Shown here: piece by piece, positions 7,543 to 17,192 of the stretch
Layout: each line of letters starts with the position of its first letter
Position numbering within the stretch: position 1 is the first letter of the stretch
IMG/VR virus record: IMGVR_UViG_3300005939_000012
Length of the DNA: 45,020 nucleotides
DNA from: a virus
Reading direction: 5' to 3' (one strand)
The notes under the pieces: model-generated
Seen by the model: the letters and a program-made list of their open reading frames with translations, nothing else
What the model was told of the DNA's origin: nothing
Databases searched by the model: none
Translations under genes and position numbers: made by a program

Positions 7543-7613
7543 GGTCCGTTGGCCGAGTGGTTAGGTGTGGCTCTGCAAAAGCTAAGACCCCAGTTCGAAT
7601 CTGGGATGGACCT
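7543..7613 (+). tRNA. tRNA-Cys(GCA)
   Basis: Hand-folded cloverleaf: acceptor GGTCCGT/ATGGACC, anticodon loop CTGCAAA, T-loop TTCGAAT. Confidence 0.7.
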
Positions 7614-7623
7614 CAACAAATAT

Positions 7624-7704
7624 TGCCCTGTAGTATAATGGAGCGTAAGCGTAACACGTCGGGTTTTGACCCCGGAGAAAAAGGTTCGATTCCTTTTAGG
7701 GTAA
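7624..7704 (+). tRNA. tRNA-like, 81 nt, anticodon loop TTTTGAC (TTG); aberrant D region
   Basis: The acceptor, anticodon arm (TCGGG/CCCGG) and T-arm fold well. The D region carries a tandem GCGTAAGCGTAA and cannot be folded canonically. It may be a pseudogene or carry an insert. Confidence 0.35.
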
Positions 7705-7881
7705 CTAGTTCTTTAAAATATAATCTGTAGTAATATAAAAGCTACTTCGATGTAAAACTAGCGCCTTAAGTGGCATTGGAGGTGAAAACCCTTCTGTCCC
7801 CACCAATTATAACCGGGGATATGGCGAAAAATAAAGACGCACTAGATAGAAAAAATCTTTTATGATTTTCTCAGATTAAAT

Positions 7882-7953
7882 TGTCCCCTGGTGTAATGGT
7901 TAGCACATGTGGTTTTGGTCCACACGGTCGGAGTTCGAGTCTTCGGGGGATAA
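7882..7953 (+). tRNA. tRNA-Gln(TTG)
   Basis: The D-arm TGGTGTAATGGTTAGCAC is Gln-like. The anticodon stem is TGTGG/CCACA with loop TTTTGGT. Confidence 0.7.
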
Positions 7954-7984
7954 CTAAAAGGGTACTTTGACGTATTGTAATAAT

Positions 7985-8057
7985 GTGGTGGTAGCTCAGT
8001 CGGTAGAGCACTTGGTTGAAGCCCAAGGTGTCGGTGGTTCGATTCCTCCTCATCACA
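7985..8057 (+). tRNA. tRNA-Phe(GAA)
   Basis: TAGCTCAGTCGGTAGAGCA D-arm, anticodon loop TTGAAGC. Confidence 0.75.
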
Positions 8058-8064
8058 CAACAAC

Positions 8065-8142
8065 GTGGCAATGGCAGAGATAAGCTGGTCAATGCACCCG
8101 GTTGAAGCCCGGGATATAGTGGTTCGAGTCCACTTTGCCACA
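8065..8142 (+). tRNA. tRNA with anticodon GAA, enlarged D region (78 nt)
   Basis: Acceptor GTGGCAA/TTGCCAC, anticodon arm CCCGG-TTGAAGC-CCGGG, good T-arm. About 5 extra nt lie in the D region. Confidence 0.5.
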
Positions 8143-8210
8143 CAACCAGTTTAAAAATGTTTTGATAAGGTTATTCAGAGTAACCAAAATAAAACATTTT
8201 TAAACTAAAT

Positions 8211-8292
8211 GAGTCAGTTGGGCAATTGGTGGCCCGCCGGATTGTAGCTCCGGTTCTTAATCGACTTGTAGGTTCGACCCCTACCTGGCTCA
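8211..8292 (+). tRNA. tRNA-Tyr(GTA), class II (bacterial type)
   Basis: Anticodon loop TTGTAGC, long variable arm, T-loop TTCGACC. Confidence 0.7.
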
Positions 8293-8310
8293 CTAAGTAG
8301 TAGTAATTAG

Positions 8311-8390
8311 AAGAGTTACTTCGCGTGTAATGGTAGCACAATTGTCCGTAAAACAATCTGAACGGTTCAAATCCGTCTTGTAAAACTCTC
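8311..8390 (+). tRNA. tRNA-like element, unresolved (possible pseudogene)
   Basis: It has a Gln-like D-arm GTGTAATGGTAGCAC, a stem ATTGT/ACAAT with loop CCGTAAA and a T-arm GG-TTCAAAT-CC. No 7-bp acceptor stem could be built. Confidence 0.3.
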
Positions 8391-8412
8391 TTGCTTTTCT
8401 CTACTTTATTTA

Positions 8413-8491
8413 CGAGCAGCGATCCAATTAGGCGTGGTTACCTCACTTGGAATGAGGGTTATTGAAGGTTCGAATCCTTTCTGCTCGACCA
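8413..8491 (+). tRNA. tRNA-Pro(TGG) with encoded CCA
   Basis: Perfect acceptor CGAGCAG/CTGCTCG followed by A-CCA. Anticodon arm CCTCA-CTTGGAA-TGAGG. The D region is 2 nt long. Confidence 0.6.
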
Positions 8492-8528
8492 AAACTTTTT
8501 GTTGGCCTGAAATGGTTAGTTAAAATTT

Positions 8529-14516: not shown

Positions 14517-14704
14517 AAGAGGGATCATGGAATAGGAGATGGACCTATTGTGCTGGATGTGATGAAGTAACTCCACATATTCCATACTTTCAAAATTGGG
14601 GATCAGCTTCTCCTAAATGTGAGATATGTAAAAATGTTAATCTTTTTAAGAATTACCATGATATTGATTGTGAGGCACTTGAATTAAATTTGAAAAAAAA
14701 TTGA
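14513..14704 (+). CDS. small Zn-ribbon protein
   Basis: CAGCDEV...CEICKN. Confidence 0.35.
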   Translation: MKEGSWNRRWTYCAGCDEVTPHIPYFQNWGSASPKCEICKNVNLFKNYHDIDCEALELNLKKN

Positions 14705-14721
14705 AAATATATCACAAAAAG

Positions 14722-14750
14722 TTTTTTATTTGAAAACTTTGGTTATATTT
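14722..14750 (+). promoter_or_regulatory. promoter-like motif variant
   Basis: GTTTTTTATTTGAAAAC-TTT-GGTTATATTT upstream of ORF 14792. Confidence 0.35.
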
Positions 14751-14791
14751 AGACTATAATTATTACAATACAATTTGTAAATTTTAAAAAT

Positions 14792-14995
14792 ATGAAAACT
14801 TTTTTATTTTGTACGACCTCTGATAATAAATATGAAATCAATTGTGGATCTTATTTAGTAACTGCTGAATCGAAAGAAGAAGCTGAAAAACTATTTAAAA
14901 TTGAAAATACTCCAGATAAGAGAATTTGTCATATTGAAGAATTAGATTTATCAGTAAAGGGACAAATTGAAATTCAGGAATCAGTAACAGAATAA
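14792..14995 (+). CDS. hypothetical protein
   Basis: 67 aa. Confidence 0.35.
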   Translation: MKTFLFCTTSDNKYEINCGSYLVTAESKEEAEKLFKIENTPDKRICHIEELDLSVKGQIEIQESVTE

Positions 14996-15147
14996 ACGTT
15001 CTTTAAAATATTCAGGAATACCCAAAGCAATGAGGGCAGTGAAAGTTATCCGATTGAGGAAGTAAAGACGAATACGCTAAGGCGTATAGTTTCCCGCTAG
15101 AATAATGATGGAGGGAATAAAGACACATCATTCAAAACCTGAAAAAT

Positions 15148-15371
15148 ACCTGTATGGCGAAATTGGTAGCCGCGCTCTCTTTGAGGGAGTCCTGTAAATT
15201 GCATGGGAATACTAGGATGACTAGCAATAAGATTACTACCATAATGCTTACCACTTAATTTATATAGAGTTACCCCGTGAAGGGATACGAAAATAAATTT
15301 AAAATTGAAACCGCAAGAAAGTAAAGGTAAGAGAGAAAGTCTTGGGTGAAGGTTCGATTCCTTCTATAGGT
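15148..15371 (+). tRNA. intron-containing class II tRNA gene (exons about 15148-15182 and 15327-15371)
   Basis: The 5' exon has acceptor ACCTGTA, a Leu-type D-arm GCGAAATTGGTAGCCGC and the anticodon 5' strand CTCTC. The 3' exon has GAGAG, a 12-nt variable arm, T-arm GAAGG-TTCGATT-CCTTC and acceptor TATAGGT. The anticodon depends on the exact splice junction (GTA or TGT possible). Confidence 0.55.
15183..15326 (+). other. intervening sequence with group I intron-like core elements
   Basis: AAATTGCATGGGAA resembles the group I P element. GATGACTAGC resembles the R element (GACUA). The 5' exon ends in U. About 145 nt is short for group I. Confidence 0.4.
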
Positions 15372-15406
15372 ACAAATAAAAATAAATTGAAAATAAATGC
15401 TCAAAA

Positions 15407-15437
15407 ACTTTTTTATCCCAGATAAAATGGTTATATT
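15407..15437 (+). promoter_or_regulatory. conserved promoter-like motif
   Basis: CTTTTTTATCCCAG-ATAAAATG-GTTATATTG. It precedes an ORF-free structured region. Confidence 0.45.
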
Positions 15438-16009
15438 GTAAATCTATTAAAATTTAAACGTTCTTTAAAATATTGAAATAATTAGCATCGCGTGAGATGC
15501 TACTACAATGAGAGTTGGTTCGCCCATACTCAACGTAGAAGAGATAGCTCTAGGTAACTGGAGTGAAGGGGATAGCTGGATTTCTCAGGCTACCCGCCAT
15601 CTTAGGATGGTTAATTTACGTAAGCTTCAACAAACCAGGGCCCAACCCTGGCATTCAGTAAAATGGATGTAGTTGGTAAGTTATGAGAGTAATGGACTTT
15701 TGGAAAATATAAGATTAGTAAACTGCCTGAGCTTCGGCGAAGGGTACAGGGCTTTTTAAATTAGGGGTGACACCCATCCATTATTCGATGTCGACATAAC
15801 GAGTAACGAAATGTTAAGGAGTAGAGTTTCTGTTTAAGTCCTGTGAGGGACGAAGGCTAGGATTCAATATTAATGGTTAAGGCGACAGCCGGTATCGTGA
15901 AATATGGCACAGTAGGGACTTTCTAACCTGAAACGCAGAGTCGGTTGAGTATTATATACCTCAAAAGGGTATGTAGCTTTGATCAAGCACCGACTTAGAG
16001 GGAGACAAA

Positions 16010-16079
16010 TTTTAGATTAGCTCAGTGTAGAGCAATTGCCTTAGGAGCAATGGGTCGGTGGGTCAAACCATCATCTGTA
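16010..16079 (+). tRNA. tRNA-like element, anticodon loop CTTAGGA (TAG), atypical T-loop
   Basis: Canonical D-arm TAGCTCAGTGTAGAGCA and anticodon arm ATTGC/GCAAT. The T-loop is GTCAAA(C). The acceptor TTTAGAT/ATCTGTA has one mismatch. Confidence 0.35.
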
Positions 16080-16882
16080 AAAATTATATGTTAAACGCAA
16101 AGACTTGGTCGGTCTTAGAAAGAAAATCGCTTAATCCTTCAGCCGTGATGGTAATGAAGGACCAGGAAACTCGCAAGGTGGATTGGTTTGATGAGGAGAC
16201 ATCCCTTTAGGCTTAGCCGCTTATTAATGGTAGTAAAATATCAAGGAGGACAAGAACATCGAGTATTTCTTTGACAATAGTGGAAAAGCTACCACTTTAA
16301 ATAAAGCAGCGTTGCTGGTAGACTACCCGAAGGGGGAGTGGATAAGTGGCTAACCAATACTGTCGCAGGTGGTTGGGTACGGCTAACGAAGGTATCAAGC
16401 ATAAGGGGTATAATCTCAACCCAAAATCGGTGTAGCTAAACAGGGCTAACGTGGTTCGATTCCACAACACTGTCAAAAAGAAATAGGTCCTAAGTATCTG
16501 GATGACCGCCGCGGAAGGTCTAAGATAACCGTACCTTAGCATATAGAAATACAAATCGAATAAGCCAGGAGGCGAAAGCCGTTGATACTGAAAGTAGATG
16601 AGTATGGAGGATTGGGTTTTAAAGCTCTTCGGAGTGTCCTTATAAAGTTAAGTGTGTGGTGGCCGTAAATATAAAGGTTTATGTGGGTTCCTCCTTATAG
16701 GTGAAGGTCAAAACTTCAGTAAAAAGTCCACTTTAAAATATATGGGCAAACGCGGGCATAGACATAGCCTGCCCTATTTAGTAAGCTGCAGACGAAACGT
16801 AGGACCGTGGTTCAAATCCACCGTTGCTCACCGCATTGAAAAGCACCCGCCTCGGGGTTAAGAGGAGTTACTGACACTCGGT

Positions 16883-17010
16883 CAGAGGTTTTACTGGTAG
16901 TTCCATATTTATCAGAGGTTTTACCGTATTCCAGATAAACGGAGGTTTTACTGATTGTCCATATAAGTCAGAGGTTGCATCGGTATCCACATAGGCCGAC
17001 AGGTTTTGAG
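16883..17010 (+). repeat. iteron-like tandem repeats (about 29-nt unit x4-5)
   Basis: CAGAGGTTTTAC recurs at 16883, 16913, 16940 and 16969, degenerate at 16999. Each spacer has a second submotif TCCA(T/G/C)ATA. Confidence 0.6.
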
Positions 17011-17110
17011 CCAGTTTACTATACAAAATGGCCTGGGCTGAGCTTAGTCTTAGGAGTTGAATCCGTAAGTGAAAACCGATCTGAAATAACGTAGAAGTAC
17101 GATCGGCTAT

Positions 17111-17192
17111 ACCCATGTGGCGGAATAGGTAGACGCGGTGTCCTCAAAAGGCATTATCATTTGGTGTGAGGGTTCGATCCCCTTCTTGGGTA
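17111..17192 (+). tRNA. tRNA-Leu(CAA), class II
   Basis: Anticodon arm GTGTC-CTCAAAA-GGCAT, long variable arm, T-arm GAGGG/CCCTT. Confidence 0.7.

Follow-up and report, generated by a model that had tools for sequence, protein, structure and literature searches.

A Viral tRNA Island with Duplicated Isoacceptors Differing at Position 37 and an Embedded GOLLD RNA

Results

The tRNA Array and Its Members

The IMG/VR virus record IMGVR_UViG_3300005939_000012 was analyzed over a stretch of 45,020 nt (the window, to which all coordinates refer), and a large array of tRNA genes was found on the + strand at positions 7543-17192. Phage tRNA islands combining a GOLLD RNA with homing endonucleases are known, and the array is one of this kind carried by a huge phage. 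The window has a G+C content of 32%, uses the standard genetic code and carries nearly all of its genes on the + strand. Its derivation from a huge phage is indicated by the 805-aa gene neighboring the array, which matches genes of the huge phage records LR756500, LR756501 and LR756503 (462-735 kb) with about 50% identity. Huge phages encode up to 67 tRNAs (PMC7162821). Relatives of the 805-aa gene were also present in the IMG/VR contigs L006 (63%) and L007 (80%). Neither tRNAs nor GOLLD were found near the shared gene in LR756500, LR756501 or L006; therefore, the island at this position is lineage-specific.

Genes were accepted as tRNA or tRNA-like with the Rfam covariance model RF00005 at its gathering score of 29 bits. 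By this criterion, the array contains 21 members with scores of 30.4-61.2 bits, all on the + strand (Table 1). The default run of RF00005 gave 19 tRNA matches window-wide, 18 of them inside the array interval, and ARAGORN found 17 genes at its default threshold and the same 21 genes at -ps90. An initial annotation made from the sequence had claimed about 22 tRNA or tRNA-like genes with anticodons for Cys, Gln, Phe, Tyr, Pro, Glu and Leu. Both programs agreed with these identities and came close to the count, and the covariance model did not reject most of the calls. The members comprise one Cys (GCA), three Gln (UUG) plus one Gln-like, two Phe (GAA), two Tyr (GUA) plus one remnant, two Pro (UGG), three Glu (UUC), two Leu (UAA), one class II Leu (UAG), one Leu (CAA) and two class I genes with UAG (8529 and 16011).

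Table 1. Features of the window. Bit scores refer to RF00005 unless another model is named; "bacterial-type" and "swapped" refer to the purine at position 37.
Feature	Position	Strand	Evidence and remarks
tRNA-Cys (GCA)	7543-7613	+	57.3 bits, ARAGORN; canonical loop CUGCAAA, U73
GlnX, Gln-like (UUG)	7624-7704	+	33.1 bits for 7634-7704; loop UUUUGAC; bacterial-type (A37)
Gln_7882, tRNA-Gln (UUG)	7882-7953	+	52.5 bits; loop UUUUGGU; swapped (G37)
Phe_7985, tRNA-Phe (GAA)	7985-8057	+	61.2 bits; phage-type loop UUGAAGC (G37, C38)
PheX, GAA tRNA-like	8064-8142	+	32.8 bits for 8071-8142; loop UUGAAGC
Tyr_8211, tRNA-Tyr (GUA), class II	8211-8292	+	49.0 bits; loop UUGUAGC (G37, C38); swapped
TyrX, Tyr-like remnant (GUA, C33)	8315-8385	+	30.4 bits, partial match 8325-8376, model positions 10-63
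ProX, tRNA-Pro (UGG)	8413-8491	+	39.4 bits; loop CUUGGAA; swapped (A37); encoded CCA
LeuI_8529, class I-sized, UAG, short-arm tRNA-Leu type	8529-8603	+	43.9 bits; A73, A14; loop CUUAGAC; swapped
Leu_UAA_8684, tRNA-Leu (UAA), class II	8684-8765	+	53.0 bits; loop UUUAAGC (G37, C38); swapped
GluX, Glu-like (UUC), C33	9552-9626	+	44.4 bits; G.G mismatch in acceptor stem
Glu_9656, tRNA-Glu (UUC)	9656-9727	+	56.7 bits
Gln_9823, Gln-like (UUG), G33	9823-9892	+	51.1 bits; 5-nt loop; bacterial-type (A37)
Pro_10021, tRNA-Pro (UGG)	10021-10097	+	51.3 bits; loop UUUGGGA; bacterial-type, canonical G37
Gln_11041, tRNA-Gln (UUG)	11041-11111	+	53.0 bits; loop UUUUGGU; swapped (G37); inside 109-aa open reading frame (ORF) 10979-11308, probably spurious
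Leu_UAG_11313, tRNA-Leu (UAG), class II	11313-11393	+	51.9 bits; loop CUUAGGA; bacterial-type, canonical G37
Tyr_11549, tRNA-Tyr (GUA), class II	11549-11629	+	49.3 bits; canonical loop CUGUAAA; bacterial-type
Leu_UAA_13395, tRNA-Leu (UAA), class II	13395-13481	+	54.2 bits; loop CUUAAAA; bacterial-type, canonical A37
Glu_14286, tRNA-Glu (UUC), bacterial type	14286-14357	+	60.4 bits
tRNA-like element (UAG) in GOLLD linker	16011-16080	+	46.4 bits, ARAGORN -ps90
Leu_CAA, tRNA-Leu (CAA), class II	17111-17192	+	47.6 bits
20-nt motif TAAACGTTCTTTAAAATATT	14993-15012, exact repeat 15455-15474	+	third copy 42832-42851, one mismatch
Split tRNA-like shell	15148-15373	+	ARAGORN with introns allowed
GOLLD 5' domain, inferred	15478-15936	+	fold energy, weak similarity, length
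GOLLD RNA 3' region	15937-16422	+	RF02032 154.7 bits, model positions 1-416, not truncated
tRNA-like minihelix, 46 nt	16428-16473	+	folds; about 10 nt after GOLLD 3' motif
Orphan T-arm-like hairpin	16806-16821
Four CAGAGGTTTTAC-like repeats	16881-16985	+	27-30 nt apart
Endonuclease I/resolvase-like ORF, flanks array upstream	6939-7541	+	domain/profile matches
251-aa mobile-looking ORF	8811-9566	+	N-terminal zinc finger; no nuclease domain found
259-aa endonuclease-like ORF	10157-10936	+	weak HNH-like N-terminus, DUF559/MTES_1575 C-terminus
GIY-YIG/NUMOD3 homing endonuclease, 213 aa	11667-12308	+	phrog_314 E = 4.7e-38; Pfam NUMOD3, GIY-YIG
516-aa SPFH/Band_7 protein	3051-4601	+	flotillin-like tail
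805-aa vault-like protein	17804-20221	+	MVP_shoulder E = 3.5e-27, Vault_3 E = 5.4e-12, Band_7
PTH2-like peptidyl-tRNA hydrolase gene	22641-22922
tRNA (CUA), amber suppressor	23630-23703	+	59.1 bits; 91% identity in L007
Candidate small RNA	42832-43170	+	no ORF over about 300 nt; terminator-like hairpin and T run

With respect to sequence and fold, the anticodon loop has 7 nt and U33, the acceptor stem is paired and both the D arm and the T arm are intact in 16 of the 21 members. The remaining members are Gln_9823 (G33 and a 5-nt loop), GluX and TyrX (both with C33, the latter also lacking an acceptor stem), and GlnX and PheX, both with a disrupted D region. A C follows the discriminator base directly in 20 of the 21 members, the exception being the GOLLD linker element. 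The complete CCA is encoded only by ProX; in the other 19 genes with C, this base is followed by A, T or G, after which A is the most frequent. The suppressor tRNA at 23630-23703 follows the same rule. A C without CCA was considered as a novel feature but judged to be ordinary for CCA-less lineages: in L009, an unrelated viral array, each of the 14 tRNAs has C next to the discriminator, and C74 is also kept where bacterial tRNA-Glu genes lack CCA, for example in the gene of a Flavobacteriales metagenome-assembled genome (MAG) that shares its acceptor stem with Glu_14286. The latter gene shares 67 of 73 bases with bacterial tRNA-Glu genes. In Bacteroidetes/Chlorobi, CCA is mostly untemplated (PMC5143459).

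About 20 contigs of independent assemblies (ENA, JGI and Logan) contained the array in the same order, with 99.4-100% identity. Between copies sharing an anticodon, identity was 60-70%, which equals the background between any two tRNAs of the array; Gln_7882 and Gln_11041, with 81% identity, were the sole same-anticodon pair above it. Thus, the duplicates are not identical copies of the kind that an assembly artefact would leave.

Conserved Variant tRNA Types and the Pattern at Position 37

The difference between G and A at residue 37, which the initial annotation had pointed out for duplicated identities, is real for Tyr, Leu (UAA) and Pro (Table 1). It also separates the two bodies of Leu (UAG) and the Gln copies, of which 7624 and 9823 carry A and 7882 and 11041 carry G, and both Phe copies of the window have G37. 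For comparison, 631 distinct viral tRNAs were inspected in arrays gathered by GOLLD, ProX and PheX patterns, so that position-37 frequencies are biased and the counts of Pro-A37 and Phe-G37, whose arms were search keys, are inflated. A mixture of A and G was present for Phe, Pro, Leu (UAA), Leu (UAG), Gln and His, and position 37 was almost always A for other identities. Among 33 same-anticodon viral duplicates, 14 differed at position 37, and all 14 were Phe, Pro, Gln or Tyr. Swapped pairs also occurred in arrays gathered through the GOLLD motif (L088, L110 and L140).

ProX has an unusual but well-paired D arm and A37, where bacterial tRNA-Pro has G37. Its 40-nt segment comprising the D and anticodon arms recurred without any change in unrelated contigs of metagenomic and viral origin; since the search was keyed on the anticodon arm, the invariance of this arm follows by construction, whereas that of the D stem does not. 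The family consisted of 11 distinct relatives, in which cloverleaf pairing was observed in 231/231 cells and compensatory changes in nine pairs, all in the acceptor and T stems. The covariation score was reached by none of 500 shuffles, and slid controls showed 34-49% pairing. This pattern clearly points to purifying selection on ProX across phages.

Other members also had counterparts in distant phages. The anticodon arm of Phe_7985 was identical to that of the cyanophages S-CRM01 and S-CBWM1, and its loop UUGAAGC was also found in Vibrio phage D419; tRNA-Phe of E. coli has A37-A38. A diverged array homologous to that of the window was present in L207, which stems from a 322-kb viral contig. 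It contains a short Tyr-like gene, ProX, a canonical tRNA-Pro, a tRNA-Tyr with the loop UUGUAGC of Tyr_8211, a class I-sized tRNA-Leu (UAA) with the loop CUUAAGC and two Glu genes, one of which is 93-98% identical to Glu_9656. In addition, the first 34 nt of its class II tRNA-Leu are 97% identical to Leu_UAA_8684, yet the anticodon is UAG. Hence, class I and class II Leu bodies carry UAG and UAA, respectively, in the window and the reverse in L207, and this opposite use is as expected if leucine is accepted by both bodies.

Class I-sized tRNA-Leu genes with a Leu-type D arm and A73 were present in 11 of 30 non-redundant viral arrays, where all four Leu anticodons were found among them. A direct sequence relative of LeuI_8529 was not present in the collected viral loci. 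A73 and A14 are the main leucine identity elements, and leucylation is possible without a long variable arm (PMC9976931). It had been proposed that a class I tRNA with anticodon UAG would read CUA outside the Leu framework. With A73 and A14 in LeuI_8529 and its type in 11/30 arrays, this assumption is not needed, and the UAG element at 16011 belongs to the GOLLD RNA and is no free-standing member of the array.

Long forms (80-95 nt) of normally class I tRNAs were observed in eight viral and metagenomic contigs (L009, L204, L206, L208, L209, L214, L221 and L224). They have identities for Gln, Asn, His, Gly, Val, Thr, Ile, Ala, Met and Pro and often adjoin a normal-length copy with the same anticodon. 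An example is a tRNA-Gln (UUG) of 86-87 nt with a long variable arm, U1-A72 and G73.

The earlier suggestion of two tRNA sets of distinct origin fits several pairs, given identities of 60-70% and variant copies whose nearest relatives lie in other phages. The latter applies to the Phe anticodon arm, the ProX family and the Tyr, Leu and Glu orthologues of L207, none of which has its nearest relative among its array neighbors. Judged from these comparisons, some of the odd duplicates are conserved phage tRNA types shared with other phages.

Damaged-Looking Members

GlnX, PheX, TyrX, GluX and Gln_9823 are the genuine candidates for decay or for a role other than decoding, because they show a duplication, a degenerate D arm, a missing acceptor stem, C33 or G33. 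GlnX carries a GCGTAAGCGTAA duplication (GCGTAA-GCGTAA, a 6-nt tandem) in the D region within 7624-7705 and is probably damaged. The D region of PheX is about 5 nt over-long and poorly paired, beside a TGGCAA/TGGCAG repeat. TyrX lacks an acceptor stem in folds, and its 5' half was hypervariable among the haplotypes of population contigs. The 5' end of GluX overlaps the stop of the coding sequence 8811-9566 by 15 nt. The fold of Gln_9823 (z = -2.5) has the stem GCCCC/GGGGC, a pairable C32-G38, a 5-nt loop and G at position 33; the gene seems unlikely to decode normally and perhaps belongs to the damaged copies. Four of these peculiarities had been listed before, namely the 81-nt gene with the GCGTAA duplication, the GAA tRNA (8064-8143) with a D region longer by 5 nt, the Glu-like gene (9552-9627) overlapping a stop and the gene with a 5-nt anticodon loop. 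All of them are present, and G33 is to be added to the last.

In 1.8 Mb of collected viral loci, no relatives of GlnX, TyrX, GluX, Gln_9823 or the body of PheX were found. Exact-arm scans of IMG/VR with GlnX and Gln_9823 gave chance matches outside tRNAs only; with PheX, about 15 viral tRNA-Phe genes were found to have this form of the anticodon arm. L207 has an unrelated tRNA-like gene that is comparable to Gln_9823 in its tiny anticodon loop (4 nt). Thus, the notion that one copy of each pair is decaying may apply to GlnX, PheX, TyrX, GluX and perhaps Gln_9823, with their lesions and lack of relatives, but it is not supported as a general account, given ProX with its compensatory changes and clear purifying selection.

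Population Variation at the tRNA Loci

Population contigs were compared over positions 5600-18300 (12.7 kb). Variant sites numbered 31 in 1545 nt of tRNA sequence and 46 in 10669 nt elsewhere; GOLLD showed none, at low coverage there. Most tRNA variant sites fell into the two Tyr loci, in a background of 99.4-100% identity. At Tyr_11549, one allele was present in the window and in contig L003, and the other allele in seven contigs. Between them, the anticodon stem changes from CCGCT/AGCGG to CTGGT/ACCAG through two fully compensated pair swaps, G7.U66 is replaced by G7-C66 and the variable arm differs, with the loop unchanged and every pair kept. In contig L015, the block of Tyr_8211 and TyrX is replaced by a haplotype of about 75% identity, in which the Tyr loop is CUGUAAA and not UUGUAGC. 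Further contigs with this haplotype were not found in the JGI metagenome collection. Gene conversion between paralogues was rejected as the source of the Tyr alleles, which match no other copy of the array.

Two smaller variants were observed at other loci. The window allele of Leu_CAA (position 17116) has U.U at acceptor pair 6-67, and four loci (three distinct contigs) have A-U. In contig L013, TAT is replaced by GTC at 9719-9721 in the 3' acceptor strand of Glu_9656, by which three pairs are broken. This variant resembles the 3' end of Glu_14286 and may be a conversion or an assembly chimera.

A GOLLD RNA within the Array

The array includes a GOLLD RNA, which had escaped the initial annotation. 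The score of its 3' region with the Rfam model RF02032 exceeds the gathering score of 150 bits, with E = 1.5e-41 for a search of the whole window. In the solved cage of GOLLD env-38, the Rfam model corresponds to the 3' region (residues 421-833), the preceding 5' domain of about 420 nt is less conserved, and the linker, in which a tRNA is sometimes present, points into the cage (PMC12286853). Assembly into a 14-mer RNA cage is established for GOLLD env-38 only (PMC12286853). In the window, 459 nt without an ORF (15478-15936) lie upstream of the 3' region and fold stably (z = -2.7; none of 100 shuffles was as stable). A weak similarity connects them with the corresponding sequences of three viral GOLLD loci (L136, L047 and L142). 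The 459 nt directly follow a 20-nt motif and agree in length with the 420-nt 5' domain of GOLLD env-38; a GOLLD RNA of about 945 nt (15478-16422) may be assumed.

The tRNA-like element at 16011-16080 (loop CUUAGGA, T loop GUCAAAC) sits in the variable linker of the GOLLD alignment. For comparison, 120 viral loci with the GOLLD 3' motif were collected, of which 92 were distinct and had enough flank. A tRNA started at most 40 nt downstream of the motif in 29/92 loci, and the linker held a tRNA-like element in 4/92. One of these four, L057 (IMGVR_UViG_3300012036_000005), has a CUA suppressor tRNA in the linker about 325 nt upstream of the 3' motif; the anticodons of the other three are UGU, AUU and irregular. 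At the usual place of the 3'-flanking tRNA, the window has a minihelix with a 6-bp acceptor stem, a small hairpin and a T arm, which would suit RNase P-type 3'-end formation of GOLLD.

Each copy of the 20-nt motif TAAACGTTCTTTAAAATATT precedes non-coding sequence, and the GOLLD stretch starts just after the copy at 15455, making the motif a candidate promoter. The third copy of the motif (TAAACGTTCTTTA[A/T]AATATT) is followed, within 42832-43170, by about 300 nt without an ORF, a candidate small RNA without an Rfam match at the gathering threshold. Between the first two copies lies a split tRNA-like shell with a 7-bp acceptor stem, a Leu-type D arm and a T arm, whose halves both resemble Leu_CAA and whose anticodon loop has an insert of 144 nt. 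A group I intron was rejected, as the insert gave no Rfam intron match at E <= 1 and its fold was inconspicuous (z = -0.3); the shell is treated as a disrupted gene or an unknown RNA.

Comparison of GOLLD and its flanks with isolated phage genomes yielded tRNA fragments only, with nothing for 14990-15480 or 16470-17110, and an Rfam scan of 15000-17300 detected GOLLD and tRNA only. No fold signal was present in 15140-15376 (z = -0.3) or 16423-17110 (z = -0.2). Between GOLLD and Leu_CAA, within a 2.1-kb non-coding stretch that spans 15000-17110 and also holds the split shell and GOLLD, an orphan T-arm-like hairpin and four CAGAGGTTTTAC-like repeats resembling GTCAGAGGTTTTAC were noticed.

Endonuclease-Type Genes and Neighboring Genes

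The tRNA region of phage T4 contains segB, a gene for a GIY-YIG homing endonuclease. The initial annotation had drawn this parallel and counted four homing endonuclease-like genes. One of them is clear, namely the GIY-YIG/NUMOD3 gene at 11667-12308, which lies between tRNA genes as in T4, and the gene at 10157-10936 is probable. The count does not hold for 8811-9566, a mobile-looking ORF without a nuclease domain, or for 6939-7541, a resolvase-like gene flanking the array. The parallel is likewise weaker for the three genes other than that at 11667-12308; they are of different or unassigned families. Moreover, the array greatly exceeds the segB region in size and differs from it by its duplicated isoacceptors and its GOLLD RNA. 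The C-terminal part of 8811-9566 has an 83% nucleotide paralogue at 41156-41499, inside ORF 40721-41515, which suggests a mobile gene family within the phage. Presence/absence polymorphism was not observed, all three endonuclease-type genes of the array being present in every near-identical contig. In L207, a small unrelated ORF lies between Leu and Glu genes, at a site not strictly equivalent to those of the window.

Locus L008 (IMGVR_UViG_3300035162_002296) encodes a 44% relative of the array-flanking endonuclease and, at 9605-9892, a permuted two-piece tmRNA gene (RF04321, 102 bits).

Downstream of the array, 1.4 kb 3' of the GOLLD RNA, lies the 805-aa gene, whose product has major-vault-protein domains. 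The SPFH/Band_7 gene is a second gene of membrane-scaffold type near this vault-like gene. The suppressor tRNA with anticodon CUA lies 0.7 kb after the PTH2-like hydrolase gene.

Codon Usage and Host

In the window, TTA accounts for 47% of Leu codons, GAA for 88% of Glu, CAA for 86% of Gln and CCA for 45% of Pro codons; TAT and TTT are also frequent. The host was searched for through tRNA-Glu. The first pattern gave no matches, and the second matched candidate phyla radiation (CPR) bacteria, Gemmatimonadales, Bifidobacteriaceae and one Flavobacteriales MAG.

Discussion

The array is probably, though by no means certainly, a translation-support island in which a canonical tRNA set is accompanied by a second set swapped at position 37. 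Such an island would have grown by accretion in five layers. First, bacterial-type tRNAs with canonical loops (Cys, Tyr_11549, Leu_UAA_13395, Leu_UAG_11313, Leu_CAA, Pro_10021 and Glu_14286) would form one layer. A second would consist of phage-lineage variants for the same codons, with a swapped purine 37 or an altered body architecture, namely the G37-C38 forms of Phe, Tyr and Leu (UAA), the G37 form of Gln, the A37 form of Pro (ProX) and the short-arm tRNA-Leu (UAG). Third, GlnX, PheX, TyrX, GluX and perhaps Gln_9823 would represent damaged copies. The fourth layer would be the GOLLD RNA of about 945 nt with its tRNA-like linker element and the minihelix at the usual place of a 3' tRNA, and the fifth the homing-endonuclease-type genes between the tRNAs. 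If expressed and charged, the island would make up for a depletion of host tRNAs by supplying tRNAs for UUA, GAA, CAA, CCA, UAU and UUU. The swapped set could sustain decoding when host nucleases cut the canonical set or when modification of position 37 becomes limiting, and the tRNA-shaped elements around GOLLD may provide RNase P-type processing sites.

Several observations weigh against this reading. Codons such as AAA, AAU, GAU, AUU and AGA are abundant in the window and have no tRNA in the island. The tRNA-Glu search did not lead to the host, its matches being phylogenetically scattered. The hot spots at the Tyr loci amount to two or three recombination-like events with modest statistical support, and the alleles could have come from exchange with related phages without selection. 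The five odd members without relatives may simply be pseudogenes, and the arrays used for comparison at position 37 were a biased sample. Finally, length, fold energy, weak similarity and position are the grounds on which a GOLLD 5' domain and a role for the minihelix are proposed.

An alternative that we regard as rather unlikely, yet as deserving serious weight, is plain tRNA supply with neutral clutter. The non-canonical copies would then be neutral or decaying, their differences at residue 37 without function, and the duplicates by-products of repeated acquisition and endonuclease-driven shuffling. Codon usage indeed fits a supply of tRNAs for A-ending codons, mobile endonuclease genes are interspersed and same-anticodon copies are as divergent as unrelated tRNAs. 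The 6-nt tandem duplications in GlnX and PheX, the absent acceptor stem of TyrX, C33 in GluX and TyrX, G33 in Gln_9823 and the absence of relatives of these five copies from the 1.8 Mb of collected viral loci are also as expected from clutter. However, neutrality does not predict that the D and anticodon arms of ProX are strictly conserved and its acceptor and T stems compensated in 11 viral sequences, or that distant phages retain the G37-C38 loop of Phe and the loop UUGUAGC of Tyr. Independent arrays repeatedly contain pairs swapped at position 37, all of them for Phe, Pro, Gln or Tyr, and the population alleles of Tyr_11549 keep every base pair. The five damaged copies are thus accounted for by clutter, whereas ProX, the shared loops of Phe, Tyr and Leu and the recurrence of swapped pairs are not.

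Codon reassignment, by which the class I UAG tRNAs would insert an amino acid other than Leu at CUA and form a recoding system with the suppressor at 23630, is improbable. Stop-codon recoding is known in large phages, the window has two class I-sized tRNAs with anticodon UAG and the CUA tRNA, 6.4 kb downstream, is kept in L007, the 80% relative. However, LeuI_8529 has A73 and A14 and would not need a long arm for leucylation (PMC9976931), and viral arrays repeatedly contain short-arm tRNAs that combine A73 with a Leu-type D arm and cover all four Leu anticodons. The reversed UAA/UAG use of class I and class II bodies in L207 fits one shared amino acid, and the 16011 element is embedded in GOLLD. 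Moreover, reading TAG as sense adds almost no ORF length in the window, and 47 of 57 long ORFs end in TAA. Within the 45-kb window, recoding of TGA likewise gained almost no + strand ORF length, and the gain with TAA is just the loss of the main stop codon.

An assembly artefact with tRNA duplicates from collapsed or chimeric metagenomic assembly can practically be dismissed: the window is metagenomic and many contigs break inside 7900-8360, but the breaks fall at real allelic variation, same-anticodon copies are 60-81% and never fully identical, and order and sequence recur at 99.4-100% in the ENA, JGI and Logan assemblies.

The proposed translation-support island shares features with known systems. 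GOLLD tRNA islands, such as the mycobacterial "32-tRNA cluster" and that of env-38, likewise have tRNA genes on both sides of GOLLD. An internal pseudo-tRNA and a nearby HNH endonuclease are described for the mycobacterial clusters (PMC6582537) and have their counterparts here, as has the linker tRNA in the nanocage context of env-38 (PMC12286853), which corresponds to the tRNA-like linker element. In contrast to these islands, the locus studied here lies in a huge phage, its linker element carries the anticodon UAG and a degenerate T loop, and a 46-nt minihelix takes the place of the 3' tRNA; no close GOLLD relative was found among isolated phage genomes. Huge-phage arrays (PMC7162821) likewise have many tRNAs distinct from those of the host and translation-related genes, represented here by the PTH2-like hydrolase and the suppressor tRNA, whereas LR756500 and LR756501 have no tRNAs beside the shared vault-like gene.

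Phage tRNAs have also been linked to defence. The tRNA-Lys of T5 reportedly evades PARIS, a defence that targets tRNA. The tRNA-Tyr of T5 overcomes the retron-Eco7 effector PtuAB, which degrades tRNA-Tyr (PMC11555353), and it has been hypothesized that anticodon-loop mutations render phage tRNAs nuclease-insensitive (PMC10264068). As in such phage tRNAs with presumed or demonstrated evasion (van den Berg 2023, T5), anticodon loops of the island deviate from the bacterial consensus and tRNA-Tyr occurs in several versions. The island differs in that purine 37 and position 38 are affected and canonical and swapped copies are paired, and evasion would be a prediction from these loops.

It is conceivable, and we offer it tentatively, that large phages keep two isoacceptor flavors as bet-hedging against tRNA nucleases or against dependence on MiaA/TrmD. 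One flavor would carry the bacterial purine, A37 for Phe, Tyr and Leu (UAA) and G37 for Pro and Leu (UAG), and the other the swapped purine, often on a changed body such as the short-arm Leu, the long-arm Gln or the D arm of ProX. If this is true, the replaced Tyr alleles in a near-clonal population would be a live trace of an arms race.

The role of phage tRNAs is debated between codon supply and evasion of tRNA-cleaving defences. The island provides natural matched pairs with the same anticodon that differ at position 37 or in the body, and they can be compared for charging, modification and nuclease sensitivity. The GOLLD RNA of a huge phage, with a tRNA-like element in a linker of the kind that faces the cage interior and with a tRNA-like 3' end, may help to work out GOLLD cages. 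Worth following are the paired tRNA flavors with a swap at position 37 and the turnover of alleles at tRNA-Tyr.

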